44,081 bases of DNA from Pseudobacteriovorax sp. (GTDB taxonomy: Bacteria > Bdellovibrionota_B > Oligoflexia > Oligoflexales > Oligoflexaceae), in the NCBI GenBank assembly GCA_013215145.1, contig JABSRP010000053.1, positions 1 through 44,081 on the forward strand, written 5' to 3'. Position 1 is the stretch's first letter. Every line of letters starts with the position of its first letter. Under the pieces are notes generated by a model. The model made no database searches. It was not told where the DNA came from and saw only the letters and a program-made list of their open reading frames with translations. The position numbers and the translations under genes are program-made. This document shows, one piece after another, positions 10,935 through 41,826 of the stretch.

Positions 10935-11302
10935 TCTAACTCACCTAGAAGTTGACGAATGCGCTCGATTTCATCCGATGAAAGCTTCTGATTCTCGATC
11001 AAATTCAATGCAAGATCAAAAGCCTTCCCCTCATAGACATCTTCAATGAGATTTTCGGCTACAGAATTTTGATAGCTAAGACGGTCAATGCGAGCGGTAA
11101 AACGATGCTCTTTCTCTGAATTGTCCTTTTTTAGATAGTTTTTCTTGACAAGATTATTCACTGCAGTTTGTAGCGAAGTATAGGCAGGAGGCGGATCTAG
11201 CATATTCAAGATATCACGAACACTGGCTCGATCATGATCCCAAAAGAGCTTCATAATTTTTAATTCATGGTCCGTAAGATTTTTATTTATGGGGCGACTC
11301 AT
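10931..11302 (-). CDS. BlaI/MecI/CopY-family winged-helix transcriptional repressor
   Basis: The protein is 123 aa. Its N-terminus LTDHELKIMKLFWDHDRASVRDILNML…YTSLQTAVNNLVKKNYL fits the penicillinase-repressor fold. Its stop overlaps the start of the M56 gene by 4 nt. Confidence 0.8.
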   Translation of the reverse strand: MSRPINKNLTDHELKIMKLFWDHDRASVRDILNMLDPPPAYTSLQTAVNNLVKKNYLKKDNSEKEHRFTARIDRLSYQNSVAENLIEDVYEGKAFDLALNLIENQKLSSDEIERIRQLLGELD

Positions 11303-20792: not shown

Positions 20793-21554
20793 GTGGCTGA
20801 TCAAGTGGATCGTATCCTTTCGATATTAAAACGAATTATAAAGTCTAGAGGGAAAACCTATCGCGACATTGCTGAAGGTCTAGGGATTTCTGAAAGCAGC
20901 GTAAAACGGGTGTTTTCCCACCAGACTTTTTCCTTGGCTCGTATGGAAGAGGTTTGCAACCTGATAGGAATTTCGATTTACGAAGTTTGCCGCATCGCGG
21001 AAAGCATTCCTGGTCAATCAGTGAGTCATCTTCCCTACGAATTGGAAGATATTCTAATCAAGGATGTTAAGTTTGCTACGTTAACCTACCTATTGATTAA
21101 CGAATGGCAAGTAAAACAGATATTAGCTGATTATCGATTCACAAAGGAAGAGGTACAAGGATACCTGAAAATTCTCGAGGACTATCAAATTTTAGAGCGG
21201 CATCCAAATTTTCGAATCCGCATGCTTGTCCCCAGGAGTGTCAGTTGGATTCCAGAAGGACCTCTAGAAAATCATTTTCGAGACTGGGTGAAAAAAGAGT
21301 TTTTGAATGATGCCTTTCAAGACGAAATGAGTTTATTCCGATTCTCTAGCGGCGAATTATCTGAACGATCTCAAAAAATTTTGCATAGAAAGATCAAGGA
21401 AACCATAGATTTATTTGACGAATTGGCCTCATTTGATGCATCTCTTGATCGTTCAGAAACAGAAAGCGTGGGAATGATAACCGCTATAAGACCGTGGTCG
21501 CTTCCTGCGTTTGAAGCATTGAAGCGTAACAGTACCTTGAAGGAAAACACATAA
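20793..21554 (+). CDS. XRE-family helix-turn-helix transcriptional regulator with a C-terminal domain of unknown function
   Basis: N-terminal HTH (KTYRDIAEGLGISESSVKRVFS). It is divergent from the GlpD-like operon, separated by 99 bp that contain a TTGACA. Confidence 0.7.
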   Translation: MADQVDRILSILKRIIKSRGKTYRDIAEGLGISESSVKRVFSHQTFSLARMEEVCNLIGISIYEVCRIAESIPGQSVSHLPYELEDILIKDVKFATLTYLLINEWQVKQILADYRFTKEEVQGYLKILEDYQILERHPNFRIRMLVPRSVSWIPEGPLENHFRDWVKKEFLNDAFQDEMSLFRFSSGELSERSQKILHRKIKETIDLFDELASFDASLDRSETESVGMITAIRPWSLPAFEALKRNSTLKENT

Positions 21555-21724: not shown

Positions 21725-23017
21725 TTGAAACTGAAGTGGCTAACTACAAGAAACAGAGTCAAGCAAGCACTTTCGGGTGGTGTTTTAGGAATTACCTTGA
21801 GTCTTGGCTCAAGTTCAGCCCTCGCAGATACTGTCGAAGTCTTACATTGGTGGACCTCTGGGGGAGAGAAAGAGGCTGCAGATCAACTTAAGGCAAAAGT
21901 TGAGGCTGATGGTCACACCTGGAAGGACGCGATTATCACCGGAGGTGGCGGTGATAATGCTATGAAAGTTCTCAGGCAGCGTGCTGTTTCCGGCAATGCT
22001 CCATCGGTAGTACAGATGAAGGGACCAGCTATTCAAGAGTGGGGTACCTACCTTGTGGACGTGGATGCGGCAGCCAAAAAACTCTCCTTCGATAAAATTC
22101 TACCTACCGAGGTAAAATCGGTGATGAAACATAAGGGCAAATACGTCGCTGTCCCCGTTAATGTTCATAGGACCGATTGGGTTTGGGCCAATAAAAAGCT
22201 TGTCGAGCCAATTTTGGCAAAAGCTAAAAATCAAAAAGGGTTTGATCAAATTCTATTTGTCGGAAAAGAGCTTAAGAAAAAGGGGGTCCAGGCCTTCGCT
22301 CATGGAGGGCAACCATGGCAAGATGCTACTGCTTTCGAGGCCATATCTCTTAGTGTAGGTGGCCCAGAATTTTACCAAAAGGCTTTTGTCGACTTAGATC
22401 TTAAAACCCTAAAGGGACCCAAAATGAAGGATGTTTTTGAAAAAACGAGAGAGTATACCAAACTATTGGATCCAAATCGAAAGGGTCTAGACTGGGACAA
22501 GGCCACTAAACTTGTCATTGAAGGAAAGGCCGGGATGCAGTTGATGGGGGATTGGGCAAAAGGAGAGTTTCTGGTCGCAGGTCAAAAACCCGGTAAAGAC
22601 TTTTTATGTTTTCCTGTTCCTACTGCTGGTCAAAGAGGTTTTTTGTTTAATATAGATAGTTTTACTTTCTTCAAGCAAAAATCGGGATCTGGAAAAGCGA
22701 CCCAGGGTCAACTTTCCTTTGCTAAACAGATTTTGACTCCTGATTTCCAACAGTCCTTCAATCTAAAAAAAGGGTCGATCCCAGTAAGGGTTGACTCCAA
22801 AGTAGGTGCTTTCGATAAATGTGCTAAAGACTCATTTTCTGACTTCACAAATGACAAAGTACGTCGCTTGCCGAGTTTTGCTCATAAGATGGCTATGCAA
22901 CCAGATGTTGAGTCTGCAGTTGTGGAAGTGATCACTGGATTTTTTAATAGCAATATGACTCCCGACTCTGCCGTGAAAAGACTGAGTTCTTCCGTCGAAG
23001 AAATCATCGAAGATTAG
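21725..23017 (+). CDS. ABC-transporter periplasmic solute-binding protein, family 1 (sugar or oligosaccharide binding). It is an orphan, with no permease or ATPase genes adjacent
   Basis: Signal peptide followed by VEVLHWWTSGGEKEA, typical of MalE-like sugar SBPs. The start is TTG, with a strong GAGGAG 7 nt upstream. Confidence 0.75.
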   Translation: MKLKWLTTRNRVKQALSGGVLGITLSLGSSSALADTVEVLHWWTSGGEKEAADQLKAKVEADGHTWKDAIITGGGGDNAMKVLRQRAVSGNAPSVVQMKGPAIQEWGTYLVDVDAAAKKLSFDKILPTEVKSVMKHKGKYVAVPVNVHRTDWVWANKKLVEPILAKAKNQKGFDQILFVGKELKKKGVQAFAHGGQPWQDATAFEAISLSVGGPEFYQKAFVDLDLKTLKGPKMKDVFEKTREYTKLLDPNRKGLDWDKATKLVIEGKAGMQLMGDWAKGEFLVAGQKPGKDFLCFPVPTAGQRGFLFNIDSFTFFKQKSGSGKATQGQLSFAKQILTPDFQQSFNLKKGSIPVRVDSKVGAFDKCAKDSFSDFTNDKVRRLPSFAHKMAMQPDVESAVVEVITGFFNSNMTPDSAVKRLSSSVEEIIED

Positions 23018-23259: not shown

Positions 23260-24087
23260 ATGAGTTTTGATCAAGAGGCCTGTTTTCAAAATCTATCTTT
23301 AGTGTTTCGTCGATATCGCGGTTCTGGAGATAGTTTTGTCATAAATAATATTTTGTCAGAAGACGAAACGGATAAATCCGAAATTTTTTTTGACGATCAA
23401 TTTCTACAAAAAAGCGATTGCTTGAAAGAGCGTCTACCAAAAATCCTGAAAACTCTATGCGATGATGATTGGTCGGGACCTTCCAGTGCTTGGGAAAAAC
23501 TGTTTCGTTATCTTGTAATATTTCGGTTTTATGATTGGTCGATAGAGGAACGAGATGCTGTATTGTCGGCCATTCATCTCTGGATGATTGATCTTGATGA
23601 GAGTGGCGATCATGATACCTACGGGGTGATTTCTGATGCTGCTTTTAACACGGGTTTTGATCAGGTACTTTTTGGTGCTGATGATGAGGAGGGGCCGACT
23701 TGGAAAATTACTTTTCAGCTAAAAAGATCGAAGCTCTATATTCTCCTAAGGAACTTAGTTCCCATGAAACTAAAACAATCTGAGATTTTGATCAACGAGA
23801 GTACAATAAGGGTGCTGAAATGGCATGATTTAAGCGATTTAAAGCAGTTTTTTGAAAGTATCGGTTCAGATTTTCTTTGGATGTACTCTTTTACTGAACT
23901 TAATTTGTCATCCTTGCGATTGAAGAACTGTGAAACTCATGTGTCCGGCGGAAAAAAGCAAATTGAGTTTTCTATTTCACTGCCAAGGCATGAGGATCTT
24001 CAAATATCTACTGCAGTTTTAGAATCTTCGGCTGAGGCACTATGTGCCTCGCTCGAACTAGATGGTTACGAAGTCTTGCATAACTAG
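23260..24087 (+). CDS. Cytoplasmic hypothetical protein (275 aa)
   Basis: Long ORF with a GGAATAGG upstream. No recognisable motifs. Convergent with the amylase gene, with a 4-nt overlap. Confidence 0.45.
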   Translation: MSFDQEACFQNLSLVFRRYRGSGDSFVINNILSEDETDKSEIFFDDQFLQKSDCLKERLPKILKTLCDDDWSGPSSAWEKLFRYLVIFRFYDWSIEERDAVLSAIHLWMIDLDESGDHDTYGVISDAAFNTGFDQVLFGADDEEGPTWKITFQLKRSKLYILLRNLVPMKLKQSEILINESTIRVLKWHDLSDLKQFFESIGSDFLWMYSFTELNLSSLRLKNCETHVSGGKKQIEFSISLPRHEDLQISTAVLESSAEALCASLELDGYEVLHN

Positions 24088-25742
24088 TTGCTCTGAAAAA
24101 TTGCAGGAACAAGTTTCTTGGGAACGAAAACAGCAGCCGATCTCCCAGGGAGGGTAACAGTCAGCGATCCATTCATAGCTTTGATTTCTTTTTGGTTGGA
24201 GCGGCCAAGGATATCGACATATACCTCTCCATCATTGGCGTTATTCGAAAGCGAAAGTGTCACGGGAAAGCTTGGCGGTAAAAAACCATTGTTAAACACA
24301 ACCACTGCGTTTTCATCATTGTGAGACCTTTCAAATGCCCAGACATTGGAGTTTTGAGGTCCGTTCTGTCGCCAAACCTCTCTATAAGAACCTATTTGAA
24401 GAGGGGTATAGTTCTGTCGAATTCTAAGCAAGTCTTTTACCAATGTAAAAATTTTATTGGGTTCTGGTAGGAATCCCTCGTATGTCCCTAGTCGTCCTTG
24501 CTCCGAAAAAGCCCATTCTGGCATAAATCGACGGTTATAAGGATCTCTCCCACCAAACATTCCAATCTCGTTTCCATAGTATATTTGTGGGACACCAGGG
24601 ACTGTGAGCAGTGCGGTCAATGCCAGCAAATACCTCTCTTGTTTTTCCTCTAGTGATATACCCTGAGACATCTCTTCCAAAAATCTAGGAACATCATGAT
24701 TGTCTAGCAGATTGATCATGTAACTAGCGCGCTCTTCTCCGTATCGAGTGATGGTTTCCGACATCCGTGCTGCGACTGCATCGACGGAACCACCGCGAGC
24801 AAAGGTATCAATAAATGCCCGCCTTAGGGGAAAGTTAAATAAGCCGTCAAATCCAGCCTCAAGGTAACGATCATATTTGTAAAACGATCCCTCATCTAAG
24901 AGTTCTCCAATCACATAAAGGGAGTTGTCCCTCGCAATCATGCCTGGGATCCATTGGTTTTTGAAATAGAGAGGATCCACGTGTTTGACGGTATCCATTC
25001 GGATGCCATCAATATCAAATCGATCAATCCATCTTTGATGTAAGTCCACGAGATAATCTCTGACATCCTTTCGGCGATGATCAAAGTCTGGTAAACCAGC
25101 GAGAGAGCAAAATATTTCAGGATCGCCTTGTGAGCTGCAACTGCTCGGTTCAGTAAACCATTCAGGTCTTTGGTGGAAGATAGTGGCCCCGTATCCTGCA
25201 TGATTAACCACCATATCGAGCATCACTTTCATTCCTTGGGAATGGGACTGGTTGAGCAAATGATCAAATTCAAGGGCTGTCCCAAACCTTGGATCTAACT
25301 CTAGCTGGTAAGGGATTTTGAAGTCTGCCCAGTATCCAGGGAATCCGCAGTTTGCGCCAGCTTTCTCTGCGACACCTTTATACAGAGGAGTGATCCAAAG
25401 AGCGTCGGCACCCAAGTTGCTAATGTAGTCCAAACGTTGGGTGAGGCCGTCAATGTCTCCACCTTGATAGGCATGAATGTCATTGGCTTGGTTGCAGGTC
25501 TCAACCCCGTTTAGCGTATCATTACCTGGATTTCCGTTGCTAAAACGATCGACTACAGTAAAGTAGATCACTCGGCGTCTCCAGTCTGTCAGGGCATCCT
25601 CATCCCTTGGGCTTACTGAGACGGTGTTTACCTCTGCAACCTGTGCGAAATTCATAGGATAACTTGTCGTTAGGCCTGATACCGCTGCAATAAAGAATAC
25701 TAGTTTTCTTGCGCTCATCATAAGGAATGTCTCCCTGAACAT
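24084..25742 (-). CDS. Secreted GH13 alpha-amylase-family glycoside hydrolase
   Basis: Signal peptide. All four GH13 conserved regions are present: LDMVVNHAG, GIRMDTVKH, VIGELLD and LLDNHD. Confidence 0.9.
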   Translation of the reverse strand: MFRETFLMMSARKLVFFIAAVSGLTTSYPMNFAQVAEVNTVSVSPRDEDALTDWRRRVIYFTVVDRFSNGNPGNDTLNGVETCNQANDIHAYQGGDIDGLTQRLDYISNLGADALWITPLYKGVAEKAGANCGFPGYWADFKIPYQLELDPRFGTALEFDHLLNQSHSQGMKVMLDMVVNHAGYGATIFHQRPEWFTEPSSCSSQGDPEIFCSLAGLPDFDHRRKDVRDYLVDLHQRWIDRFDIDGIRMDTVKHVDPLYFKNQWIPGMIARDNSLYVIGELLDEGSFYKYDRYLEAGFDGLFNFPLRRAFIDTFARGGSVDAVAARMSETITRYGEERASYMINLLDNHDVPRFLEEMSQGISLEEKQERYLLALTALLTVPGVPQIYYGNEIGMFGGRDPYNRRFMPEWAFSEQGRLGTYEGFLPEPNKIFTLVKDLLRIRQNYTPLQIGSYREVWRQNGPQNSNVWAFERSHNDENAVVVFNNGFLPPSFPVTLSLSNNANDGEVYVDILGRSNQKEIKAMNGSLTVTLPGRSAAVFVPKKLVPAIFQSN

Positions 25743-25902: not shown

Positions 25903-28761
25903 CTAGGAGGCTTTTGAGTCCGAGGCGATGGCTAGAGAAAGCCTTGTAAATTCTACTATATGATTGGGTAGGAAAATCTGAAAGGAAAAAGCGTAAGACC
26001 TACTATCTTTACTAGATTCGGCAAGACTCACATCGACTGATCCTCCCTCAACTTCGATAAACTCTTTCACAACATCTAAACCGACTCCACGTCCCGATAA
26101 ATCCGAGACTTCGCTCTTAGTAGAGAACCCCGGGATAAAAATAGTCCTTGCTATCTCAAGTGGAGAAGAGAGATCAGCATGCCTCCGCTCGGACATCTTG
26201 GAGGTCCTTTCTTTGAGTTTGTGCAAGTCAAGACCTGAGCCATCGTCGGCATAGGTAAGCTGGATTCCGTTGTTAGACATGGTGACCGAGATTTCGATAT
26301 TTCCCATCTCGTCTTTCCCTTTTTCTTTTCTGATATTCGGCGGCTCAATGCCGTGGTCCATACTATTGCGGAATAAATGGACAAAAACGTTTTGGATTAG
26401 CGTTGCGTACTCCATTTTAAGACTAACCTCATCACCTGAGTAGGTGATATTGGGCATTGGTTTGTCTAGGTTTTGGGCTATAGATTCGAGAGACTTTACA
26501 ATATCTGTGAGAATATCTTCCAAGGATAGCTTGGTCATTTGAAATAATTTATCCCTCACGAGAAATAAATCTTGTTGGCTCTTTTCGGATTGAACGCTGT
26601 TGCTACTCTGATCGATCATCTGAAAGATTTCGGAGATTGCCAATTTCGACACCTGAATGCTGTTATCGTCGGACTGTGATTGATGGAGAGCCTCCTCTTT
26701 CAATCGCTGGTATTCATCTATTTCCTCGGATACTGCCTGGACTTCTGACAACATTTGCTCTCTATCCCATAGGGACGGTGTATCCCTAATTTGGGAAAAT
26801 CTGTTTTCTGCATGGTGAGTTTTTTCGGCCAAAAAGCTGAACTTGTAAGTGCGAGCTAACCCCTTCAATGTATGCATGTTTCTAAAAATAAGGTTAATTC
26901 TTGACTCCCTATCCAGCCCTTCATTTTGAATAGAGTCGCGACATGAAGCCGTTAACTTGCGGCTGGTTTGGATGATATCTCGAAATTTTTCTGGCTTTAC
27001 TTCGATGATCTCGTGGAGGTATTTTAGCTCGCTGGTTACTTTTTCGTTCTTTGCCCTTAATCGTCTGATTTCCGTGGAATCTCTGACTGCAACGATGATT
27101 TTTTCAATACTGGAATCATGTTCATCGATAATATAAGACCAATCGATATCGAGGTATTTTGCCTCATCACCACTCCCGATCGAAATTTCCTTGGGTAAAA
27201 GATGTTCGTTGGCCTCAAAGACAATAGCATCTTGTCCCACAACCGACTGAAGGGTAGCTTCCACCTGGTTCTTTTCATTGGTATCCAAACTACTATGGGC
27301 AAAGAGTAGATCCCTTAACAAAACTTTAGGCGATAGACGACCTGCTAAAATCACCTCAAGCTCACTAGAGTATTCAGGATCAATAGTGAGGTTATCATTT
27401 GAAATCGAAAAAATTCCTTGCCTGAGGGAGTCTAGAACGGATCTAATATGCCTAGTTTGGCTTGCTACTTTTCTATCTAAATTTTCAATATGTTCATTTA
27501 ATTCTTTGTTCAATCCTTTGATGGTGGTCTCATCTTTTTCAACCTGAGCAAAAGCATTAGAAAAGCGCATGGCTATATTACTAGCTTGAAAAAGGATAAG
27601 TAGCATGAGCCCGTAAGATAGCAACCAAGATCCTTGGATATATGCCATAGAAACCAGAATATCGTATATTATACTAAAGAAAAAAATTGCTGCTCCAGCA
27701 ATAGCTACCGAAGCCCCAATTTCTTTTTTGTAGGCAGCGCGGAACATTGTTGTGAATGAATAGATGACGCTGAGAATAATAATGAGATGAAAAAATGGCA
27801 GAAATTTCCCATAGGTTTCTTGCTCTCCTATAAGAACTATCATACAGCCGATGATACCTGCAAACCAAATAACCTTTCCACCCCGTGGAAAATATTTTGT
27901 GTAGCTGCTTTTCACGAAGGACATAAATAAGGGTCCACCAATGACGATGGCCAAAAATTCCAATTTTTTAAACCATTCGCTATCGATATTAGGAAAGTTA
28001 CGAATTAAAAGGTTACCATCTGCGGTGCTGATGCGCCTCGATACAATTGCTATGCAAAACAACCCAAAGTATAAGGGAGCCTTACTCTTGGATCGTATCA
28101 TAAATAGTATTAAATGGTATATTCCCATGATGGCAATAAAGCCAATTACGATGCCATTGAAATTGATTTCGTCGATGAACTCGTCAAAGAAAAAAGAGTT
28201 TTTGTGTAGAGACATAGGAGTCCAAAGCCCACCCGAATTGTGGTGAAAGGCAGAAACTTCAAGCCAAATCTTCGCAATACCCTTTTTATCGGACCTAATG
28301 GGGACGTAGGTCGCTCCTCGTCCAGCGGCAGATGTGGCTTTGCTTTTTCCCACCACGCCGCTGGAATCAATATACTTCCCATTGACGAAGATCCTCCAAG
28401 ATGATCCCAGCTCGGGAACGCGTAGGTAAATAAGCCCTCTTGGTTTTTTTAGGTCTAGAAATAGTTCGTAGGTCGCGAAACCTTGTTTCTTTATAAAATT
28501 GTGTTGTTTTGAGAGTTTGTCCCACTTAGTAGGTATACGGACTTTGAGAGACTTTTGAATTTTCCGTGATTCACGGTTTAACTCCGATAGAAAAATTCCC
28601 CAGTAGAAATTCCATTCTGCATCGAGAGAGACTTTGCTTTCAGATATGTCTCCTATCGCGACTTGGTGTCTGGTTGATTTAGCCCAAGAATTGCTAACAG
28701 ACCCTATAGCCAAGGTTAGAGTGAGTAAAAATACTGTCTTAGTTATATTCGGCAATCGCAT
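25903..28761 (-). CDS. 7TMR-DISM receptor fused to a CheA-type histidine kinase module (HPt plus P4 ATPase) of 952 aa. It has no P3/P5 domains and no receiver
   Basis: A signal peptide is followed by a periplasmic 7TMR-DISMED2-like domain (…LRVPELGSSWRIFVNGKYI…) and 7 TM helices. A ~250-aa helical linker follows. The HPt motif is IFRNMHTLKGLARTYKF. The CheA-type catalytic domain reads HLFRNSMDHGIE…, ADDGSGLD and SGRGVGLDVVKEFIEVEGGSVDV. The ORF ends about 40 aa later. Confidence 0.8.
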   Translation of the reverse strand: MRLPNITKTVFLLTLTLAIGSVSNSWAKSTRHQVAIGDISESKVSLDAEWNFYWGIFLSELNRESRKIQKSLKVRIPTKWDKLSKQHNFIKKQGFATYELFLDLKKPRGLIYLRVPELGSSWRIFVNGKYIDSSGVVGKSKATSAAGRGATYVPIRSDKKGIAKIWLEVSAFHHNSGGLWTPMSLHKNSFFFDEFIDEINFNGIVIGFIAIMGIYHLILFMIRSKSKAPLYFGLFCIAIVSRRISTADGNLLIRNFPNIDSEWFKKLEFLAIVIGGPLFMSFVKSSYTKYFPRGGKVIWFAGIIGCMIVLIGEQETYGKFLPFFHLIIILSVIYSFTTMFRAAYKKEIGASVAIAGAAIFFFSIIYDILVSMAYIQGSWLLSYGLMLLILFQASNIAMRFSNAFAQVEKDETTIKGLNKELNEHIENLDRKVASQTRHIRSVLDSLRQGIFSISNDNLTIDPEYSSELEVILAGRLSPKVLLRDLLFAHSSLDTNEKNQVEATLQSVVGQDAIVFEANEHLLPKEISIGSGDEAKYLDIDWSYIIDEHDSSIEKIIVAVRDSTEIRRLRAKNEKVTSELKYLHEIIEVKPEKFRDIIQTSRKLTASCRDSIQNEGLDRESRINLIFRNMHTLKGLARTYKFSFLAEKTHHAENRFSQIRDTPSLWDREQMLSEVQAVSEEIDEYQRLKEEALHQSQSDDNSIQVSKLAISEIFQMIDQSSNSVQSEKSQQDLFLVRDKLFQMTKLSLEDILTDIVKSLESIAQNLDKPMPNITYSGDEVSLKMEYATLIQNVFVHLFRNSMDHGIEPPNIRKEKGKDEMGNIEISVTMSNNGIQLTYADDGSGLDLHKLKERTSKMSERRHADLSSPLEIARTIFIPGFSTKSEVSDLSGRGVGLDVVKEFIEVEGGSVDVSLAESSKDSRSYAFSFQIFLPNHIVEFTRLSLAIASDSKAS

Positions 28762-33513: not shown

Positions 33514-34122
33514 GTGGACTTTTTGAGTTTAGCGTTTCGCTTACCAAGCTTGCCTTTCTCAATTCTGTTTGGACTTTCGATTCTCTATTGGGTGGGTACC
33601 ATAGTCGGGTTTTTCGACTTAGATGGTTTGGACCTAGATTTCGAGATAGGCGACGTTTCAGCTTTGGGTAAGGTCTTAGACCTATTTGGAATTGGTAGAG
33701 TTCCAAGCTCTATTTGGCTGAGCTTTTTTGCCTTAAGCGCCCTAATCTTATCTATAAACCTTAATCACCTTGCCGATTCAGTGATTCCCACCTGGACCGA
33801 TAGCATACGGCTAGTGGTATTTGGTATTCCGGTAGTGATTGTTTCCTCGTTGTTGGCAAGGCTACTGTCATCGCCTTTTGCTCCTCTCTTTCGAGGATTA
33901 AATCGACAAAAGGTGTTTTCGATTGAAGGAAAGACTGTACATGTCACTTCGAGCTCGGTGGACCAGAGTTTTGGAATAGCAGAGTTTCGTGATGGCGGCT
34001 CGCCCATTATATTAGATGTCCGCAGCATTGATGAGGAAACCCTTGTGAAGGATGATTTGGCTGTTGTGGTACGCCATGACAAAAAAAATAACACCTATTA
34101 CATTCATAAACATATTACTTAG
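33514..34122 (+). CDS. YqiJ/NfeD-like inner-membrane protein (the short NfeD form with a C-terminal OB-fold). It is the flotillin partner
   Basis: N-terminal TM helices, a FGIGRVP motif, and a C-terminal beta-rich segment (GSPIILDVRSIDEETLVKDDLAVVV). Both match the E. coli YqiJ layout. GTG start with AAGGAGAG 5 nt upstream. It is followed 16 nt later by a flotillin gene, as in yqiJ-yqiK. Confidence 0.65.
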   Translation: MDFLSLAFRLPSLPFSILFGLSILYWVGTIVGFFDLDGLDLDFEIGDVSALGKVLDLFGIGRVPSSIWLSFFALSALILSINLNHLADSVIPTWTDSIRLVVFGIPVVIVSSLLARLLSSPFAPLFRGLNRQKVFSIEGKTVHVTSSSVDQSFGIAEFRDGGSPIILDVRSIDEETLVKDDLAVVVRHDKKNNTYYIHKHIT

Positions 34123-34137
34123 TAGAAGGTTTCAGGT

Positions 34138-36132
34138 ATGGAAAATGTTTTTATTAATTCAGGAATTGTCATTTTTGCAAGTGTCAGCTTGTTTATCTTG
34201 GGAATCGTATTTTTCATAACGCGTTTCCTGAGAAAGGTTGAACCAGGAAAAGCTCTGATTATTATTAATCCGTTCAAAAAGAATATGGCTGTTAGCTTCA
34301 CAGGAGGCGTCGTAATCCCTGTCATCCATCGTGCTGAGGTTATGGATATTTCGACCAAACAAGTTGTGGTTGAAAGGCGTGGAAAAGATGGTCTGATATG
34401 CAAAGATAATATTAGAGCTGATATTTCAGTTAACTTCTATATCAGAGTCAATAATACAGTAGAAGACGTGCGCAACGTTGCTCAAAGTATTGGAGTTGAT
34501 CGAGCCTCCCAGAAAGAAACCTTGGATGAACTATTTCAGGCCAAATTTTCGGAAGCTTTGAAAACAGTAGGCAAGAAGACCGATTTCGAAGAGCTTTTTC
34601 AGGAACGCGCTTTGTTCAAAGAAAAAATTGTTCAGGAGATAGGGCAAAACCTCAATGGCTACAGTCTGGAAGATACAGCCATTGACTATCTCGAACAAAC
34701 AGGTCTCGAATTTTTTGAGCCAAACAACATTCAAGATGCAGCCGGTATAAAAAAGATTATTGATATCACATTAGAGTTGAAAGAGCAGAAAGAAAAGCGT
34801 GAAACGGAAGCAACGGAGCGCATTCTTGAGCTAGACAGACAGAGGGCTGAGGCTAAGGCGCGTCAGGAAGCCGAAATCGCCATTCTCCAGGCGAGAGAAA
34901 ATGCTGAGCAGGAAAAAATCATCCAAGAAGAAAGGCAAAAAGCCGAACTTGCAAAGATCCGCGTTGACGAGGAATTACGAATTGCAGCGGAAAATATGGA
35001 ACGTCAGGTTGAAGTTGCTAAAAAAAGTAAGGAACGCACGGTTGCTGTTGAGACAGAGCGAGTTGAAAAAGAACGAGATCTTGAAAAGACTGACCGCGAA
35101 AAACTAGTTGCGCTTGCAGATATCGAAAAAGTGAGAGCGGTTGAAGATCAGAAGAAAACGATTCAAGAAATCATTAGACAGCGTGTGGCACTAGAACGAT
35201 CAGTGGCTGAGGAAGAAGAAAAGACTAAGGATACGGTAGCATTGGCTACTGCTAACAGAAACAAAACAGTACAATTAACAGCGGCGGAGGCCAATGCTGA
35301 AGAAAAGTTAGTAACCGAAATTAAATCTGCTGAAGCCAAAGAAAAAGCAGCAAAATATGCAGCTAATGAAATGGCAATACGCGCGGAAGCTGAGCTTGCT
35401 ACATCTAATCAGATCGCCGACGCAAAAAAAATCCTAGCCGAAGGGATCATTGCCGAATCTGCTGCGGTAGGTTTGTCTGAGGTGAAAGTAAAAGAAGCTG
35501 ATGCTGATGCTGTTCGGAAGCTGGGAGAGGCCGAAGCTCATGCCTTGACCTTCAAGTCTAGAGCTGAAGCCGAGGCCATTCGGGAAAAAGGAACCTCTGA
35601 AGCGCAAATTATTGCTGATAAGGCCAAGGCTATGCATGATCTAGACGAGGTGGGAAGAGAGCACGAAGAGTTTAAAGCCAGGCTTAATGTCCAGCAAGAA
35701 CTGGCTCTTGAAAAATTGACTGTTAGTCGCGATATAGCAAAAAATAATGCTCAGGTGATTAGTAAGGCTCTAGAAAATGCAAAGATTGACATCGTAGGAG
35801 GTGACCAAATATTCTTCGATAAACTAATTTCGGCAGTGAGTAATAGCAAGTCAATTGAAGCTCGTTTTCCAGAAGATGGAGTCTTAAATCAGGTCAAGGA
35901 TGTTTTTTTATCTGATGGAAACGGTGAGTTGATGACCAAGCTAAGAGGAGTCATTGATACTCTTGGTGTTGGGTCAAAAGCAATGAAAGATTATAGTATC
36001 GCGGGACTACTTAATAAATTGCATAGTGAGACAAAGGATTCGTCGATTCAGGGTGTTATATCTGGACTTCTTAAAGATGCTGAGTCCGCTGGGATCAATG
36101 ATCAGTCTTCGCAAATATTGTTTAATAAATAG
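34138..36132 (+). CDS. Flotillin-family SPFH/band-7 protein (664 aa, YqiK-like)
   Basis: An N-terminal TM helix is followed by an SPFH domain and a long Glu/Ala/Lys/Arg-rich coiled-coil (the flotillin-type EA repeat region). It is tightly linked to the NfeD-like gene upstream. Confidence 0.8.
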   Translation: MENVFINSGIVIFASVSLFILGIVFFITRFLRKVEPGKALIIINPFKKNMAVSFTGGVVIPVIHRAEVMDISTKQVVVERRGKDGLICKDNIRADISVNFYIRVNNTVEDVRNVAQSIGVDRASQKETLDELFQAKFSEALKTVGKKTDFEELFQERALFKEKIVQEIGQNLNGYSLEDTAIDYLEQTGLEFFEPNNIQDAAGIKKIIDITLELKEQKEKRETEATERILELDRQRAEAKARQEAEIAILQARENAEQEKIIQEERQKAELAKIRVDEELRIAAENMERQVEVAKKSKERTVAVETERVEKERDLEKTDREKLVALADIEKVRAVEDQKKTIQEIIRQRVALERSVAEEEEKTKDTVALATANRNKTVQLTAAEANAEEKLVTEIKSAEAKEKAAKYAANEMAIRAEAELATSNQIADAKKILAEGIIAESAAVGLSEVKVKEADADAVRKLGEAEAHALTFKSRAEAEAIREKGTSEAQIIADKAKAMHDLDEVGREHEEFKARLNVQQELALEKLTVSRDIAKNNAQVISKALENAKIDIVGGDQIFFDKLISAVSNSKSIEARFPEDGVLNQVKDVFLSDGNGELMTKLRGVIDTLGVGSKAMKDYSIAGLLNKLHSETKDSSIQGVISGLLKDAESAGINDQSSQILFNK

Positions 36133-36140
36133 GTATAGTA

Positions 36141-39100
36141 GTGACTATCAGTAATACGCTTACAGCTACGGGCGGCAACTTTGATATCATTAGAAAAAGA
36201 CTGATAACACAAAGCAAAGCCCTTGAGACGATACTAACGGATCTCAATCTAAGACGTAAAGATACCTTTGGAACTATCGAAAACAAGATTCTTTCGTCGG
36301 ATCGAGTTAATACACCTATCCCCTGTGTGGCTCGCGATATGGTAGCTCAGGGGGATACGTTACTTATGGCGTTTGAGGTCCATTTTGGATTAAAATCTTC
36401 GGTAAATGTTTCTGATATTTTTAGAACCTATCAATATATAGACGATAGATTTCAAGAGGTCGAAGCGACACTTATTGATGATGAACAGTTCTATCGCGAT
36501 CTTTCCGATTTGACTAAATTCTACAAAGATTGCCGATTTGCTAGATTTTTGAAGAAAAAAACATTTTTGTACATGATCTTTCATGTGGGGCGCGGTAGAG
36601 ATAAAAAAGTCTTCAAATGGGCCATTAATCCCGATGATAAACTAACTTATGTTGATAATAGATCAGATTTTGAAGTCGCTGATCCACCCCAATATAGTTT
36701 TGATTGGGAACGTATCACGCGCGATGATCATGTGTATATTGGTGAACCTCATATTAACGTTTCAGATCGACTGTTTGTTGACTGCTTGGGTGGATCGCTT
36801 ACGATAAGGATCGAGGATAACACCGAAATCGGTCATACGATTCTTCAAGAATCTGTTGATGAAACGGATCAAACCTTAGACGATGCGGTTATCGAATACG
36901 CCGTATTGGATCATATTATTATTCTCAAGATACTTCCCTACCGAGAGCAAGATGCCCGATACTTTATATATAACGATAAAAACGAAACCATTAAAAAGGT
37001 AGAGGATCTAAAAAACTGTGGAATCGCACTGCCTGAAAACGATGGACTGATGTTTCCTAACGGTTATTATCTAAGGAATGGTACTTTCCGTTCGTTTTCG
37101 CTAGAACGAAGCGATATGAAGTTCCAACAGTGTTTAGAAAGCCTGAATGGAGAAGATCTACTTTATGCCTTTCATGACCACGAGATGGGCGAATATATCT
37201 TAATCCAATATAACCGTATTGAAAAAACGGTAGGTCAACCTATTACCTGTCATGGATATGCTATATTTGGTAACGGAAAGATGGTGGTTTTTGGGGCTTC
37301 GCAAGAACCTATGAAGAGTCATAGTATTCAAACATGGAGCACATCGTTTATCGAAGATGCTAGCGTCTTTGAAGCTTCTGATGAATCTTCTATGGCGCGC
37401 ATAGGTAATAAAACATTGGTTGATGGTTTTTCTGACCTGTGGGAGATAACCAATTTAGCTAAAAAAGAAGAAAATACCTTAGCGGAATATAATGAATTAT
37501 TGAGGTTCATCCGAGAGTCTCAGGATAGGCATTATTGGTTTAGTGAAGAAGAGTTTTCCCAAATAAAACAAAAATTAGCTGATCTTCTGTCCACTGCTAC
37601 TTCTGCCGTCGATGAATTTGAAAAGGTGATTAGCGCAAAGAAAAAAAGTCATAAAGATTTTCAAGAGGCTGAGATCAATGTACAAAATCTTATTGATGCC
37701 ATAAAGATAGAGGGATTCGAAACTATTGATCCCTTCATTGAAAAGATCACCGATCTTAGATTGCAATTGGGTGAGGTTCTCTCACTGGCGGAAAATCAGT
37801 TTGCAAATGCCGAAGGGTTGGAAGTTCTTGAGGGACGACTTAAAGCAGAGCTGGATCAGCTAACGAGCTCTTGTAGTCGATTTCTTATGAGCCAAAAAGC
37901 GGTTCAGCCATTTCATGATCGTTTGGAGCAGATCTTATTGTCTATGGAGTCCGTAGAACGCTCAAAAGATCTAGAAAATGTTGATGCTGAAATCGCGAAA
38001 TATACTCTTCACCTAAATACATTAACGGATCTTATAAACGATTTGGCTACTTCCGATCCGAAGGATTCGGTTCAAATCATTGAACAATTATCTCAACTTA
38101 TTGCCGGGTCAAATCAAGTTAAAGCAAAATTCAAATCTATTCGAACCAACCTGCTTCACGAGGAGTTAGGAACCGAGTACCAAGCGCAAATGACTCTTCT
38201 GTCGCAATCGGTTTCTAGTTACCTGGAGCAAGTTGAATCTCTAGAAGATTGTGATAACTTTCTTGATCGAGTTCTCGGCAATCTAGAATCACTAGAGGTT
38301 AAGTTTTCCGAATTTCCAGACTATCTAAATGATCTTGCTGAAAAACGTGATGAATATTTTTCCGTGTTTCAGTCAAAAAGGGTTCAAATACAAGAAGCCA
38401 GCAATAAAAAAATAATGGCAATGATGGACTCTGGAGCGCGTCTTTTGAAAAGTATAAAAAAGCGCTCGATCCACCTCGAAACGTGTCAACAGATTTCTAC
38501 TTTTTTCGTCACCGACAGTATGGTTACCAGATTACAAACAGTTGCTGATGAGATGGCTAAACTAGGTGAGACGGTGAAAGCTGAGGATTTAAGGGGGCAG
38601 CTTAAAAAAATTAGGCAAGATGCCTTAAGGCAGCTGAAAGATAAACAGGATTTATTTCAACTTGGTGAAAATATCATAACTTTGGGTCAGCATAGTTTTC
38701 AAGTGAGTGACCTGTCGGTGGATCTCTCCATTATTGAGCGTAGCGATGGACCCAATATTCATATATCTAGTACTGATTTTTTTCAGGCTATTCCAGAAGG
38801 AAGTTTGAACTCTTCAAAAACTCTGTCTCAACAAACAGTCGTCAGTGAGACAAAAAAAGTATATCGATCGGTTTATCTCGCTTATTATTATGTGCAGAGT
38901 CTATATGCTGGCGAGAGGCCTTTAAATTTAAGTCAATTGCTCTCTAACTCAAGTAGTCTAGACGGTGTAGAGGATGAAGCCCTCGAAAAAGATATCCTTT
39001 CTTTTATGCAGAGTAGGTTAGACGAAGGCTATGAAAAAGGCGTACACGATAGAGATGGCTATAGAATTATCGGTCGTATACTTCCTATTCTCGCTCATGA

Positions 39101-41078
39101 CCCTGTACAGAGATTTCATCCTGTAACACGAGCGCTAGGATTTTTATTCTCTAAATATGAGGAAAATGACAGTTTAAGCGTCATTCTTAAAAAAATCCAG
39201 TCTTGGTCTAAAATACAAAAACAAAATCTCGCTCGTAATCCAAAAAACGACTATATTGAAGAACTTCGTTGCGAAATCAAAAACTTTCTTTCGGCATCTA
39301 ATTTGGATGATTATGTAGGCTATGATCATAAAGTAGCTCACTACCTAGCACATCAATTTTTGCTACAGGAAGATCACCGGGACCACTATTTTGCTAAAGA
39401 GTCCTACGAATTATATAATGAGTTTACCGAGTGGATCAAGCAAGGTGATCTGAAGGATAAAATCCTTTCACTGGTGGATGGGGTTGATCACTTAGGTGAT
39501 AAAATTGCGATATTATTTGATTGGTTGCAACAATTTCAAAAGACATTTAACAGTGGAAAAGACGACTTTGTACTGGAATCAGTGATTATAGCTTTGGAAT
39601 TACAATTTACGGCAGCAGATAATCAAAATTTCCAGATGAAAAGGCTAGTCAACAGTAGCATATTTAGTGTAGATGGACTCATTGGAACTCACGAAAACCT
39701 TGATCAAGGAAAACTTAATACTTATGTATTTGAATTATTTTCTCAGGTGGAAACCTATTTAGAAGATGGAAGAGACGCGTTTCTAAACTTCCAGATCGAA
39801 AAGCAAAATTTAATCAAACAATATCGGCAATCGTTTAAACTTGATCAGCTGCAACCGAAAATTCTTGGATCGTTTGTTCGCAATCAGTTAATTCAGGAAT
39901 CATACCTGCCAAAAATTGGTGAAAACTTTGCAAAACAAATCGGAAGCTATGGAAATGATAAGCGTGTTGATCTGATGGGTCTGCTCCTTTTGATCTCACC
40001 CCCAGGCTACGGGAAGACCACATTAATGGAATATGTGGCTCAGAGGCTGGGTCTGATATTTTTAAAAATTAACGGCCCAGCGATTGGTCACAGTGTAACA
40101 TCTTTGGACCCACAGGAGGCACCAAATGCGACGGCTCGGCTAGAAATTGAGCGTCTTAACTTTGGTTTCGAACTTGGGAATAATGTTATGATTTATATCG
40201 ATGATATCCAACACTGCCACTCTGAGTTTCTTCAAAAATTTATTTCATTATGTGATGGCCAGAGGAAAATCGAGGGAGTTTGGCAAGGTAGTCCGAAGAC
40301 CTATGACTTTCGAGGTAAGCGTATTGCAGTGGTCATGGCAGGAAACCCATATACCGAGACGGGTGAGGTCTTTCGTATCCCAGATATGTTATCAAACCGA
40401 GCCGATATATATAATTTAGGTGATATGCTAAGTGGTTCGGAGGATGCGTTTCTACGATCTTATATAGAAAACTGCCTTACCTCCCACCCTGTACTTGCGA
40501 AATTGACAAATATTGACCAAACAGAGACTCAAAAGCTCATCGAACTGACGGAAGAAAATCATGAGGACTTAGGGACTCTTGTAAAACGTTCCGTGTCTGA
40601 AGGTCATCAAGACTTAGCCAATATGCTAGTGAAGTGCGTATTCGTACGAAATATTGTTCAGACTGTTAATCAAAGCTACATAGCCTCGGCAGCACAGGAT
40701 GACTCATTTCGGACCGAGCCAGGATTTCTGTTGCAAGGTAGTTATCGGGATATGAATAAAATCATGGGAGGGATTCAACCTGCTATGAATGAGTCGGAAC
40801 TTTTGGATCGTGTGATCGATCATTATCGTTTTGAGTCGCAGTTGCTTACCAGTTCTGCAGAGTTCAATTTTTTACGATTCCTTGAACTCATCGATCGCTT
40901 GGACGATCGAGAGAAAGTCAGAATCGAAGAGATACGTGGCGAGTTTAGAAAAACTCAACGTCTATCTTCTGCAGGCAAAGATGGAATAGGGAATATTATA
41001 GGCCAATTGGATCAATTTAACGTAAAATTTGATGAACTAGTTAACGTCTATCGCAGTCGGATAAAACAACATGACTGA
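36141..41078 (+). CDS. Giant 1645-aa protein with a C-terminal MoxR/AAA_5-type AAA+ ATPase module. The N-terminal ~1270 residues have no recognisable domains
   Basis: Walker A is LLLISPPGYGKTTLMEY (aa ~1285). Walker B is VMIYIDDIQH. Sensor-1 is VVMAGNPY. The central region is long and helical, coiled-coil-like. GTG start 8 nt after the flotillin stop. Confidence 0.7.
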   Translation: MTISNTLTATGGNFDIIRKRLITQSKALETILTDLNLRRKDTFGTIENKILSSDRVNTPIPCVARDMVAQGDTLLMAFEVHFGLKSSVNVSDIFRTYQYIDDRFQEVEATLIDDEQFYRDLSDLTKFYKDCRFARFLKKKTFLYMIFHVGRGRDKKVFKWAINPDDKLTYVDNRSDFEVADPPQYSFDWERITRDDHVYIGEPHINVSDRLFVDCLGGSLTIRIEDNTEIGHTILQESVDETDQTLDDAVIEYAVLDHIIILKILPYREQDARYFIYNDKNETIKKVEDLKNCGIALPENDGLMFPNGYYLRNGTFRSFSLERSDMKFQQCLESLNGEDLLYAFHDHEMGEYILIQYNRIEKTVGQPITCHGYAIFGNGKMVVFGASQEPMKSHSIQTWSTSFIEDASVFEASDESSMARIGNKTLVDGFSDLWEITNLAKKEENTLAEYNELLRFIRESQDRHYWFSEEEFSQIKQKLADLLSTATSAVDEFEKVISAKKKSHKDFQEAEINVQNLIDAIKIEGFETIDPFIEKITDLRLQLGEVLSLAENQFANAEGLEVLEGRLKAELDQLTSSCSRFLMSQKAVQPFHDRLEQILLSMESVERSKDLENVDAEIAKYTLHLNTLTDLINDLATSDPKDSVQIIEQLSQLIAGSNQVKAKFKSIRTNLLHEELGTEYQAQMTLLSQSVSSYLEQVESLEDCDNFLDRVLGNLESLEVKFSEFPDYLNDLAEKRDEYFSVFQSKRVQIQEASNKKIMAMMDSGARLLKSIKKRSIHLETCQQISTFFVTDSMVTRLQTVADEMAKLGETVKAEDLRGQLKKIRQDALRQLKDKQDLFQLGENIITLGQHSFQVSDLSVDLSIIERSDGPNIHISSTDFFQAIPEGSLNSSKTLSQQTVVSETKKVYRSVYLAYYYVQSLYAGERPLNLSQLLSNSSSLDGVEDEALEKDILSFMQSRLDEGYEKGVHDRDGYRIIGRILPILAHDPVQRFHPVTRALGFLFSKYEENDSLSVILKKIQSWSKIQKQNLARNPKNDYIEELRCEIKNFLSASNLDDYVGYDHKVAHYLAHQFLLQEDHRDHYFAKESYELYNEFTEWIKQGDLKDKILSLVDGVDHLGDKIAILFDWLQQFQKTFNSGKDDFVLESVIIALELQFTAADNQNFQMKRLVNSSIFSVDGLIGTHENLDQGKLNTYVFELFSQVETYLEDGRDAFLNFQIEKQNLIKQYRQSFKLDQLQPKILGSFVRNQLIQESYLPKIGENFAKQIGSYGNDKRVDLMGLLLLISPPGYGKTTLMEYVAQRLGLIFLKINGPAIGHSVTSLDPQEAPNATARLEIERLNFGFELGNNVMIYIDDIQHCHSEFLQKFISLCDGQRKIEGVWQGSPKTYDFRGKRIAVVMAGNPYTETGEVFRIPDMLSNRADIYNLGDMLSGSEDAFLRSYIENCLTSHPVLAKLTNIDQTETQKLIELTEENHEDLGTLVKRSVSEGHQDLANMLVKCVFVRNIVQTVNQSYIASAAQDDSFRTEPGFLLQGSYRDMNKIMGGIQPAMNESELLDRVIDHYRFESQLLTSSAEFNFLRFLELIDRLDDREKVRIEEIRGEFRKTQRLSSAGKDGIGNIIGQLDQFNVKFDELVNVYRSRIKQHD

Positions 41079-41826
41079 ACATAACGAGCCCTTCTCCGTC
41101 GTCGAGACACTGAAAATTCTGCTATTACGCAAAGAATTTATTGTTTCAACGGCTCTTTTGGGTTTTTGTCTCAGCTCTGTTCTAGTATTCGGAGAATCGG
41201 CTTTTTTGAGCTTTGCCTTAGTCTCTGTTTTTTTATCTACTGCAATGATTGCAATTTTGAATCTGAAATTTCGTAGAGATATTCTTCTAGGTCGTGCCAT
41301 TGTAGATAAAAGTAGGCTGGCCATAGAGCAGGAAAAAGAGTCATCAATCTACAATAAGATCATCGATGAATTGGAAACTTTTGAGTTGACGGCAAAGATG
41401 ATACGAAAGTCTGTCAAGATAGAGTCTCAGGCACGATCTCAACGTTCCCATTTGCTTAGCTGTTTGGAGAAGAACTTAGTTAAGGGTGAATTAACCTACT
41501 ATCGGTACCTTTCAGCTGCAGATGATGTTTTTGATCACATCACTCATAACCAAGAACAGCTCAAACGATACTATGAGCAGCTGGCAGACCTAGTTCGAGA
41601 TAAAAGTACCGACTTAGGTACGCAACTAGTTCAGCCTATATTCCATGAGATTTCCTTACTTCACAGTAGTTGTGATGAGAGTATCTTAGCTTTATCTCAT
41701 CTCATTGTTTCGCTGGAAAAGATGAATACAGGAAAGGATGAGTATGAAGTTTCGCTGAAGTTGGAAAGGCTCCGAGAGCTTGCAAACCAAGCACAACGAT
41801 ATGATAAAAAAGATCAGAGTTTCTAA
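41071..41826 (+). CDS. Membrane protein of 251 aa with two N-terminal TM helices and a C-terminal coiled-coil. It is translationally coupled to the giant ATPase gene
   Basis: The ATG at 41071 overlaps the upstream stop by 8 nt. Two hydrophobic helices span about aa 25-75. The remainder is helical with heptad-like repeats. Confidence 0.6.
   Translation: MTEHNEPFSVVETLKILLLRKEFIVSTALLGFCLSSVLVFGESAFLSFALVSVFLSTAMIAILNLKFRRDILLGRAIVDKSRLAIEQEKESSIYNKIIDELETFELTAKMIRKSVKIESQARSQRSHLLSCLEKNLVKGELTYYRYLSAADDVFDHITHNQEQLKRYYEQLADLVRDKSTDLGTQLVQPIFHEISLLHSSCDESILALSHLIVSLEKMNTGKDEYEVSLKLERLRELANQAQRYDKKDQSF

Follow-up and report, generated by a model that had tools for sequence, protein, structure and literature searches.

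A 7TMR-DISM receptor joined to a CheA-type Hpt and P4 core in Pseudobacteriovorax, a probable orphan member of the class III sensor kinases

Introduction

Is a membrane receptor that carries the phosphotransfer and kinase domains of CheA on its own polypeptide a singular invention, or does it belong to a known class of sensor kinases? This question is raised by a gene on contig JABSRP010000053.1 of Pseudobacteriovorax sp. (assembly GCA_013215145.1). We analysed all 44,081 nucleotides of this stretch, referred to below as the window. The gene lies at 25903..28761 on the minus strand and its product, the sensor, combines a 7TMR-DISM receptor with a CheA-type histidine phosphotransfer (Hpt) domain and a CheA-type P4 ATPase domain. 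A model that saw the letters and a list of the open reading frames (ORFs), without database searches, had described the protein as an unusual direct receptor-to-CheA fusion (the sequence-only reading). The sensor is an orphan 7TMR-DISM member of a large family that has already been described from genome analysis, and not a new system. We consider it probable that it is a functional class III-type membrane kinase, in which a core of Hpt and P4 derived from CheA has acquired its own sensors and lost P5.

Class III histidine kinases (HKIII) are reportedly sensor-bearing proteins with an Hpt domain and a CheA-type kinase domain that have neither dimerisation nor CheW domains. Their usual genomic companions in Burkholderia and opportunists akin to it are said to be a soluble chemoreceptor of unorthodox type, CheX and a single-domain response regulator (RR); this association is reportedly not obligatory. 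The class is further said to be phyletically narrow and linked to pilT. We know of no member that has been characterised experimentally; to our knowledge the class is defined bioinformatically only and is poorly studied. Part of the class description is paraphrased second-hand in PMC6501615.

Results

Catalytic core

The ORF list of the window contains the gene as described in the sequence-only reading, with a product of 952 amino acids. An NCBI entry from a Pseudobacteriovorax sp. metagenome-assembled genome (MAG) is 100% identical (P0001); it is annotated from Met3 with 950 amino acids and named 'Hpt domain-containing protein'. The start of the longest ORF (28755..28761) reads MRLPNITK..., two codons 5' of the NCBI start MPNITK... 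(950 aa). From the N-terminus the sensor comprises a signal/anchor helix, a jelly roll, the 7TMR-DISM module, a signalling helix, a PAS domain, Hpt with His630, a short hairpin and the P4 ATPase, while P2, CheW/P5 and a receiver are all missing. These boundaries were drawn from Pfam, where all matches of the sensor exceeded the curated cut-offs and weak matches were listed down to E<=10, and from a full-length AlphaFold2 (AF2) model built with 52 relatives (mean predicted local distance difference test score, pLDDT, 85.6). All features lie on the minus strand:

25903..28761, minus: whole gene, predicted class III-type sensor histidine kinase, 952 codons plus stop
28684..28761, minus: N-terminal signal/anchor helix, residues 1-26 (AF2 helix 5-26; hydrophobic, ends ...SNSWA/K)
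28201..28680, minus: extracellular jelly roll, galactose-binding-like, residues 28-187 (AF2, family profile, Foldseek)
27553..28200, minus: 7TMR-DISM seven-helix membrane module, residues 188-403 (Pfam PF07695 and AF2)
27427..27552, minus: signalling helix running on from the seventh transmembrane helix (TM7), residues 404-445 (AF2)
27076..27426, minus: PAS domain with helical insert, residues 446-562 (AF2 and profile)
26995..27075, minus: PAS-to-Hpt connecting helix, residues 563-589 (AF2 helix 563-586)
26689..26994, minus: CheA-P1-type Hpt four-helix bundle, residues 590-691 (Pfam Hpt and family profile)
26872..26874, minus: codon of His630, predicted phosphorylation site in NMHTLKG (aligns with CheA His48; invariant in the family)
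26533..26688, minus: disordered linker 692-705 and short helical hairpin 706-743 at the place of CheA P3 (AF2, alignments)
25966..26532, minus: CheA-P4-type ATP-binding kinase domain, residues 744-932 (Pfam, NCBIfam, PDB sequence match, Foldseek)
25903..25965, minus: C-terminal tail, residues 933-952, and stop (no Pfam match; low AF2 pLDDT)

Pfam assigned Hpt to residues 598-676 (E 7.3e-7; 29.8 bits against a cut-off of 24.6). The family profile retrieved CheA P1 structures with E-values of 2e-12 to 1e-8, and the region also matched CheA P1 by sequence in a PDB search. HisKA, H-kinase_dim, CheW and Response_reg gave zero Pfam matches in the sensor, even at E<=10. The sequence-only reading had asked for a check of whether the HTLKG region might belong to a HisKA domain; as Pfam placed Hpt there above its cut-off and found no HisKA at E<=10, an ordinary HisKA kinase was ruled out. 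In an alignment of 52 members, which are only ~25-30% identical, residues H630, T631, K633, G634, H649 and E652 of Hpt were invariant. When aligned with E. coli CheA, H630, K633, H649 and E652 fell on His48, Lys51, His67 and Glu70 with equal spacing. In CheA biochemistry these four residues form a hydrogen-bond network that is required for phosphorylation of P1.

For the ATPase domain the nearest solved structures by sequence were CheA P4 domains (E 3e-30 to 3e-24). Pfam HATPase_c covered residues 788-928 (E 6e-11), and the CheA models of NCBIfam matched residues 737-915 only, far under their full-length cut-offs. The P4 fold was predicted with high confidence in the AF2 model and reached target-normalised TM-scores of 0.80-0.86 against CheA P4 in Foldseek. 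All four boxes of the kinase were found, namely the N box HLFRNSMDHGIE, G1 DDGSGLD, the F box FIPGFST and G2 SGRGVGLD. Invariant among the 52 members were H795, R798, N799, D802, H803, G804 and E806 of the N box, D839, D840, G841 and G843 of G1, S889 to G894 of G2, and likewise the F box. The motifs HTLKG (with His630) and GRGVGLD, to which the sequence-only reading had pointed, are present in the translation, and its central statement that a 7TMR-DISM receptor is fused to a CheA-type Hpt and P4 was confirmed by the Pfam domains and by the matches to CheA P4 and P1 structures. Judged by their residues, Hpt and P4 look like an active CheA-type P1-P4 pair and not like a generic Hpt relay. Since the boxes and the P1 network are invariant over many divergent paralogs, we therefore argue that catalysis has been retained.

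Family size and distribution

The sensor was searched exhaustively with HMMER against 1.84 billion representative proteins, each of which stands for a cluster at 50% identity; 41,962 of them matched at E<=0.001, and 2,759 did so at E<1e-30. Most of the best 150 of the 41,962 matches (E 1e-138 to 1e-79) were ~900-980 aa long and aligned from the ectodomain to the C-terminus, and thus shared the full architecture. Nearly all of these 150 contained HT[LIMVF]KG, the CheA N box and GRG[VI]G, and every protein ended 37-71 residues beyond G2. Because a tail of this length is too short for P5, this domain is missing throughout the best 150. A truncated CheA was rejected as an explanation of the sensor, as many relatives share its architecture and all end 37-71 residues past G2; an assembly chimera was rejected since the same architecture recurs in numerous relatives. 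Top matches of other lengths aligned only over residues ~413-935, the output module, and the same module was found behind GAF, HAMP, 4HB_MCP, PAS and Y_Y_Y sensors. Named members of the family came from Oligoflexus, Pseudobacteriovorax, SAR324 and Oleiphilaceae, with at least four distinct paralogs in O. tunisiensis and at least two in P. antillogorgiicola. One protein of 1276 aa (P0042) carries two tandem Hpt and P4 modules behind a single 7TM sensor, and HTIKG, the N box and the G2 box each occur twice in it.

In genomic DNA the module was traced with a hand-built pattern (M-H-T-x-K-G-x-A-R, 156-166 codons, R-N-[AS]-x-D-H-G), the spacing of which is never found in CheA. At least 120 genome stretches were matched and the pattern was fully specific, the module being present in 120/120 loci examined. 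Most matches were from Burkholderiales (Burkholderia, Paraburkholderia, Ralstonia, Cupriavidus, Pandoraea, Rhodoferax, Acidovorax, Aquabacterium), and the remaining ones include Pseudomonas, Oleiphilaceae, SAR324 and Oligoflexus. Two short contigs, one from an Akkermansia muciniphila MAG (L108) and one from an Acidobacteriota MAG (L076), carry a class III-type module in lineages where such modules were not otherwise seen, and the Akkermansia contig looks mis-binned. The term 'unusual' in the sequence-only reading thus did not hold, given that the best 150 relatives mostly have the same architecture and that the output module is common to kinases encoded in operons of Burkholderiales.

Operonic relatives and class assignment

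The relatives in Burkholderia and Cupriavidus are kinases of about 800 aa with the order 4HB_MCP-HAMP-...-Hpt-HATPase_c. On annotated Ralstonia and Burkholderia replicons the kinase gene belongs to a four-gene operon, together with genes for a 238-aa mini-MCP, that is a protein with a short signalling hairpin of methyl-accepting chemotaxis proteins (MCPs), a 177-aa protein and a 121-aa single-domain receiver. The sole PDB matches of the 177-aa protein were CheX and CheC, which were weak (E 0.07-0.26) and aligned on the E-x2-N...P phosphatase motif. Homologues of the mini-MCP were found at 78 of the 120 loci, of the CheX-like protein at 69 and of the receiver at about 62; each locus is an 8-kb stretch and many loci without partners end at the stretch limit. 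For the CheX-like protein encoded in the Burkholderiales operons (L129, 8137-8670) Pfam gave no match, and its C-terminus is a near-invariant GELELF. The operon receiver (L129, 8700-9065) varies very little among Beta- and Gammaproteobacteria and SAR324, and such receivers mostly scored about 190-213 bits over about 120 residues, with a few lower values, some of them at locus ends.

Kinases with 7TMR-DISM_7TM, Hpt and HATPase_c also occur in Burkholderiales, and those at L052, L068, L101 and L102 sit in operons with mini-MCP, CheX-like and RR genes. Moreover, one SAR324 MAG contains both an operonic copy (L024) and a copy without partner genes in the stretch examined (L100). We take the Hpt and P4 kinases with operon partners to be HKIII, as they match the reported description of the class.

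Residues 416-932 of the sensor aligned with the 4HB_MCP-HAMP-Hpt-HATPase_c kinase of Burkholderia locus L009 at 31% identity (E 1e-75), and its output module (413-935, ~520 residues) was 31-35% identical to kinases of Burkholderia, Ralstonia, Cupriavidus and Hylemonella. Genuine CheAs aligned with the module over P4 only. The sensor and the operonic kinases have the NMHTxKGxAR motif and a spacing of 160-170 residues from the His to the N box in common. Mean identity of the module to 7TM-type members was 31.1% (n=156) as compared to 31.9% (n=119) for non-7TM members, a set that includes the operonic L092, L125 and L012; L092 (34%) is accompanied by mini-MCP, CheX-like and RR genes. Because the sensor is equally close to both groups and 7TMR-DISM members are found in operons, we regard it as a member of the class of the operonic kinases. 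In line with HKIII it has a CheA-type HATPase_c, an N-terminal Hpt with the conserved His and sensor domains on the same polypeptide, no recognisable H-kinase_dim or CheW, and an output module that is homologous to the operonic members over its whole length. Genes for an RR, a CheX-like protein or a soluble chemoreceptor were not adjacent in the window, nor at the related loci L001, L002, L004 and L005, and no pilT was found on the 44-kb contig, which covers only part of the genome.

When the sensor is held against CheA, P1 and P4 are present and P5 is not, as there is no CheW match and the protein ends about 60 residues past G2. The sequence-only reading had likewise stated that P5 is missing and had asked whether a CheW-like domain lies in the last 40 residues; Pfam found none there at E<=10. 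Since P5 was tested and is absent, the sensor should not be filed as a CheA. The sequence-only reading had further stated that the fusion bypasses MCP/CheW coupling. This stands for CheW, while for the MCP it does not, as the mini-MCP is still a conserved partner in the operonic relatives.

P3 position

For a lack of the P3 dimerisation domain, as claimed in the sequence-only reading, there are findings on both sides. Pfam H-kinase_dim was not detected in the sensor (E<=10) nor in 52 relatives, in which CheW was not detected either, and a profile of the hairpin segment alone retrieved only generic helical proteins from the PDB and no CheA. On the other hand, a hairpin is predicted at residues 706-743 and the alignments cross P3. 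Its helices in the AF2 model (706-722 and 726-743) comprise about 17 and 18 residues as compared to about 27 and 27 in CheA P3. The full family profile aligned without gaps along the entire P3P4 construct of Thermotoga maritima (4xiv, chain positions 2-243) and also along 1b3q, and Foldseek aligned 254 columns to the 250-residue 4xiv as against 191 columns to P4 alone. P3 is weakly conserved and has been described as frequently missed by HMMER (Berry et al., PMC10782961).

Sensor half

The segment after TM7, which had been read as a helical linker of ~250 residues, turned out not to be simple. Based on the AF2 model and the PAS profile matches, we assign it to a signalling helix that ends at 445, a PAS domain (448-561) and an exit helix that connects to Hpt. 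Residues 381-445 form one unbroken helix in the model, with low pLDDT at 428-442. The alpha/beta domain at 448-561 contains strands at 448-454, 525-528, 535-545 and 551-561, and a profile of this segment built from 31 relatives matched the PAS domains of ThkA (3a0r; E 9e-6), 3mxq (E 0.009) and WalK.

The membrane module was recognised by Pfam 7TMR-DISM_7TM (PF07695) at residues 201-393 (E 2.7e-22), and AF2 predicted seven membrane helices from residue 188 to about 403. In front of it, the jelly roll occupies the position usual for 7TMR-DISMED2. Modelled separately, the ectodomain was again a jelly roll (pLDDT 93), and the full-length model has a beta-sandwich at 43-187. The ectodomain family profile matched the N-terminal sugar-binding domains of GH2 glycosidases (E 2.7e-7), and the fold matched the same domains in Foldseek (E 3e-8). 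Pfam 7TMR-DISMED2 (PF07696) was undetected in the sensor and in the 52 relatives scanned; it is present in one tandem paralog at locus L002.

Genomic context

Pfam scans of all plausible genes revealed no receiver, CheW or CheX-like gene in the window, and a receiver hidden Markov model (HMM) gave no match among all window ORFs of >=40 aa. This HMM, built on the operon RRs, would detect a receiver in the window because generic receivers score 25-103 bits with it; true operon RRs score 190-213 bits. The view of the sequence-only reading that the sensor has no receiver and the window no CheY, CheW or response regulator was therefore upheld. The same absence of an adjacent response regulator was seen for the 7TM paralogs of P. 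antillogorgiicola, Oligoflexus, SAR324 and one metagenome, some of which are arranged in tandem or close together. At L001 in P. antillogorgiicola, a single-domain receiver encoded 6 kb away from the paralog scored 127 bits, a value between those of generic receivers and operon RRs.

A gene at 2199..5756 (minus) codes for a soluble 1185-aa protein with eight PAS domains and a minimal MCP hairpin at its end, which stops about 21 residues past the tip. Its four central PAS domains are near-identical, and the DNA contains a 366-bp tandem repeat at 3348..4979 (4.5 copies, 96% match). The short hairpin resembles those of the mini-MCPs in class III operons, but the 77-bit HMM match of the protein spans only the universally conserved hairpin tip and gives no specific link to them.

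Next to the sensor gene, a secreted GH13 alpha-amylase is encoded 160 bp downstream on the same strand (24084..25742, minus), and a family-1 solute-binding protein (21725..23017, plus) and an HTH regulator (20793..21554, plus) lie nearby. A promoter and terminator scan around the gap between sensor and amylase genes performed no better than shuffles, and no terminator was found in the 160-bp gap. Elsewhere in the window, a four-gene row at 33514..41826 (plus), which looks like a conserved module, codes for a YqiJ-like membrane protein, an SPFH/Band-7 protein, a 1645-aa protein with DUF3686, DUF7902 and an AAA ATPase, and a 251-aa protein. At 9900..11302 (minus) a gene for a BlaR1-type M56 peptidase sensor overlaps that of a BlaI/MecI-type (Penicillinase_R) repressor, which is the typical arrangement of a signal peptidase and its repressor.

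Discussion

Three other explanations of the sensor were weighed against a functional class III-type kinase. That it might be a one-off, unprecedented fusion of 7TMR-DISM with a CheA core, replacing the array of MCP, CheW and CheA, seems hardly credible. Its architecture indeed falls outside the CheA diversity catalogued in PMC10782961, and the NCBI names of such proteins are only generic. However, the full architecture recurs in most of the best 150 relatives, each from a different 50%-identity cluster, and the output module is found on many other sensor types and in at least 120 genomes including well-known Burkholderiales. The many independent genomes also exclude a family of annotation or assembly artefacts. 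Moreover, the operon partners of the relatives fit the reported class III description, and the mini-MCP is kept there. A further possibility is an inactive or phosphatase-only scaffold, that is a pseudo-kinase or an Hpt relay fed by another kinase. To be active, CheA normally needs to dimerise and to be coupled to the array, and the sensor has no canonical P3 detectable by sequence and is an orphan gene without a partner, all of which would fit such a scaffold. We nevertheless consider it very unlikely, since H795 and N799 of the N box, D839-G843 of G1, the F box and G890-G894 of G2 are invariant in 52 members, as is the P1 network of H630, K633, H649 and E652, and since the confidently predicted P4 fold superposes on that of CheA.

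It also appears unlikely, if somewhat less so, that the sensor represents a separate lineage, in which CheA Hpt and P4 were recruited independently, in convergence with HKIII, for another output such as control of transcription or c-di-GMP through a partner other than CheY. Next to the 7TM copies examined outside Burkholderiales, genes for a mini-MCP, a CheX-like protein and an operon-type RR are all missing, and the sole single-domain receiver near one of them, in P. antillogorgiicola, stays at 127 bits against the 190-213 bits of the operon RRs. Yet homology is collinear over the whole 520-residue module of PAS, Hpt, hairpin and P4 and not confined to P4, the NMHTxKGxAR motif and the spacing from His to N box are shared with the operonic kinases, and the sensor is equally close to operonic and to other 7TM members. 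Likewise, 7TMR-DISM members are found inside operons, and a single SAR324 MAG has an operonic copy as well as one that is without partner genes in the stretch examined.

As a functional class III-type kinase, the sensor may work as follows. An extracellular ligand, probably a glycan, would bind the ectodomain and change the conformation of the 7TM module and the signalling helix, which would pass the signal to PAS. PAS and its exit helix would change the position of the Hpt bundle towards P4, probably in a homodimeric protein. Dimerisation is likely and would run via the signalling helix, PAS and perhaps the hairpin. Because the PAS helix enters Hpt almost directly and the tether of P4 is short (the hairpin and some 14 disordered residues in the AF2 model), signalling probably proceeds by repositioning His630 with respect to the P4 site. 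P4 would then phosphorylate His630 from ATP, and phospho-His630 would donate to a free-standing CheY-like regulator, the gene of which would lie in another part of the genome. The sensor would be one of several orphan paralogs of Oligoflexia, which may share one regulator. If the model is right, this is probably the logic of class I kinases carried out with class II parts. The carbohydrate-related neighbours of the gene fit a sugar signal and the sugar-binding-like ectodomain.

Several points weigh against this interpretation. The sensor gene has neither a partner regulator nor a CheX-like gene nor an operon-type mini-MCP beside it, and the transfer to a CheY-like regulator is drawn from the relatives. 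The class III identity depends on a match between the reported description of the class and the operons found, and kinase activity of the family is predicted from sequences and models. With regard to a glycan ligand, the predicted sugar-binding-like fold is a generic jelly roll, and the neighbourhood of alpha-amylase and solute-binding protein is not conserved at the related loci L001, L002, L004 and L005.

For the window itself this is an ordinary finding, one more paralog of a known class. The family, however, is far larger and phyletically wider than the few Burkholderiales operons, with 2,759 matches at E<1e-30 and members in Oligoflexia, SAR324, Oleiphilaceae and others. The members from Bdellovibrionota (Oligoflexia) and SAR324 may extend the reported range of HKIII. 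CheA is normally controlled only inside lattices of receptors, CheW and CheA, and the chemistry of its regulation is hard to isolate. In proteins of the sensor type, the P1-P4 pair is wired straight to a membrane sensor through PAS, and with a soluble fragment (residues 404-952) the gating of P1 access to P4 could be studied in a compact system. With respect to annotation, such genes should neither be named cheA nor be left as 'Hpt domain-containing protein'. We also offer a speculation that we ourselves regard as doubtful: in Oligoflexia and SAR324 the class III module might have been freed from its operon and multiplied into divergent orphan 7TMR-DISM sensors. These would differ in their glycan-binding ectodomains and all signal to a single CheY-like regulator in control of surface motility or predation. 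If true, this would be an alternative to chemotaxis with many sensors, one regulator and no receptor array, and a transmembrane receptor could directly switch a CheA-type P1-P4 core with no need for P5, CheW or the cooperativity of a lattice.

Comparison with known systems

Like HKIII, the sensor has sensor domains, Hpt and a CheA-type HATPase_c on one chain and neither CheW/P5 nor a recognisable H-kinase_dim. It differs from the HKIII operons in that no partner genes adjoin the sensor gene or the other 7TM copies that were examined (Oligoflexia, SAR324 and one metagenome), and in that Oligoflexia genomes contain several divergent paralogs. Moreover, the usual input of HKIII is 4HB_MCP-HAMP, whereas the sensor uses 7TMR-DISM, although members with 7TMR-DISM also exist in operons.

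With CheA the sensor shares a P1-type Hpt and a P4-type ATPase with the CheA-specific N, G1, F and G2 boxes, and a hairpin is predicted at the P3 position. CheA has been defined by P1, P3, P4 and P5; a CheW domain was present in 100% of sequences, and a sensor domain is not part of this definition (PMC10782961). In contrast, the sensor is without P5 and P2, its hairpin is shorter and has no sequence signal on its own, and Hpt is placed about 165 residues ahead of the N box without long flexible linkers. Also unlike CheA, which has no input domain, it has its own transmembrane sensor and PAS.

The extracellular beta-sandwich and the 7TMR-DISM_7TM module are those of RetS/LadS-type hybrids and of fusions to GGDEF or adenylate cyclase domains, and the N-terminal 40-50% of the sensor is 22-30% identical to 7TMR-DISM proteins with classical outputs (P0002-P0011, P0015, P0017, P0018). 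Unlike in these classical receptors, the output is Hpt with a CheA-type P4 and not HisKA with HATPase_c, GGDEF or a cyclase, and the ectodomain is missed by Pfam 7TMR-DISMED2 and matches GH2 sugar-binding domains. Finally, the sensor resembles the class I kinase ThkA of Thermotoga (3a0r), in which the exit helix of PAS also leads straight into the His-bearing bundle, and the PAS end and the helix of both proteins align. In the sensor, however, this bundle is a monomeric four-helix Hpt and not a dimeric DHp, and the ATPase is of the CheA type.

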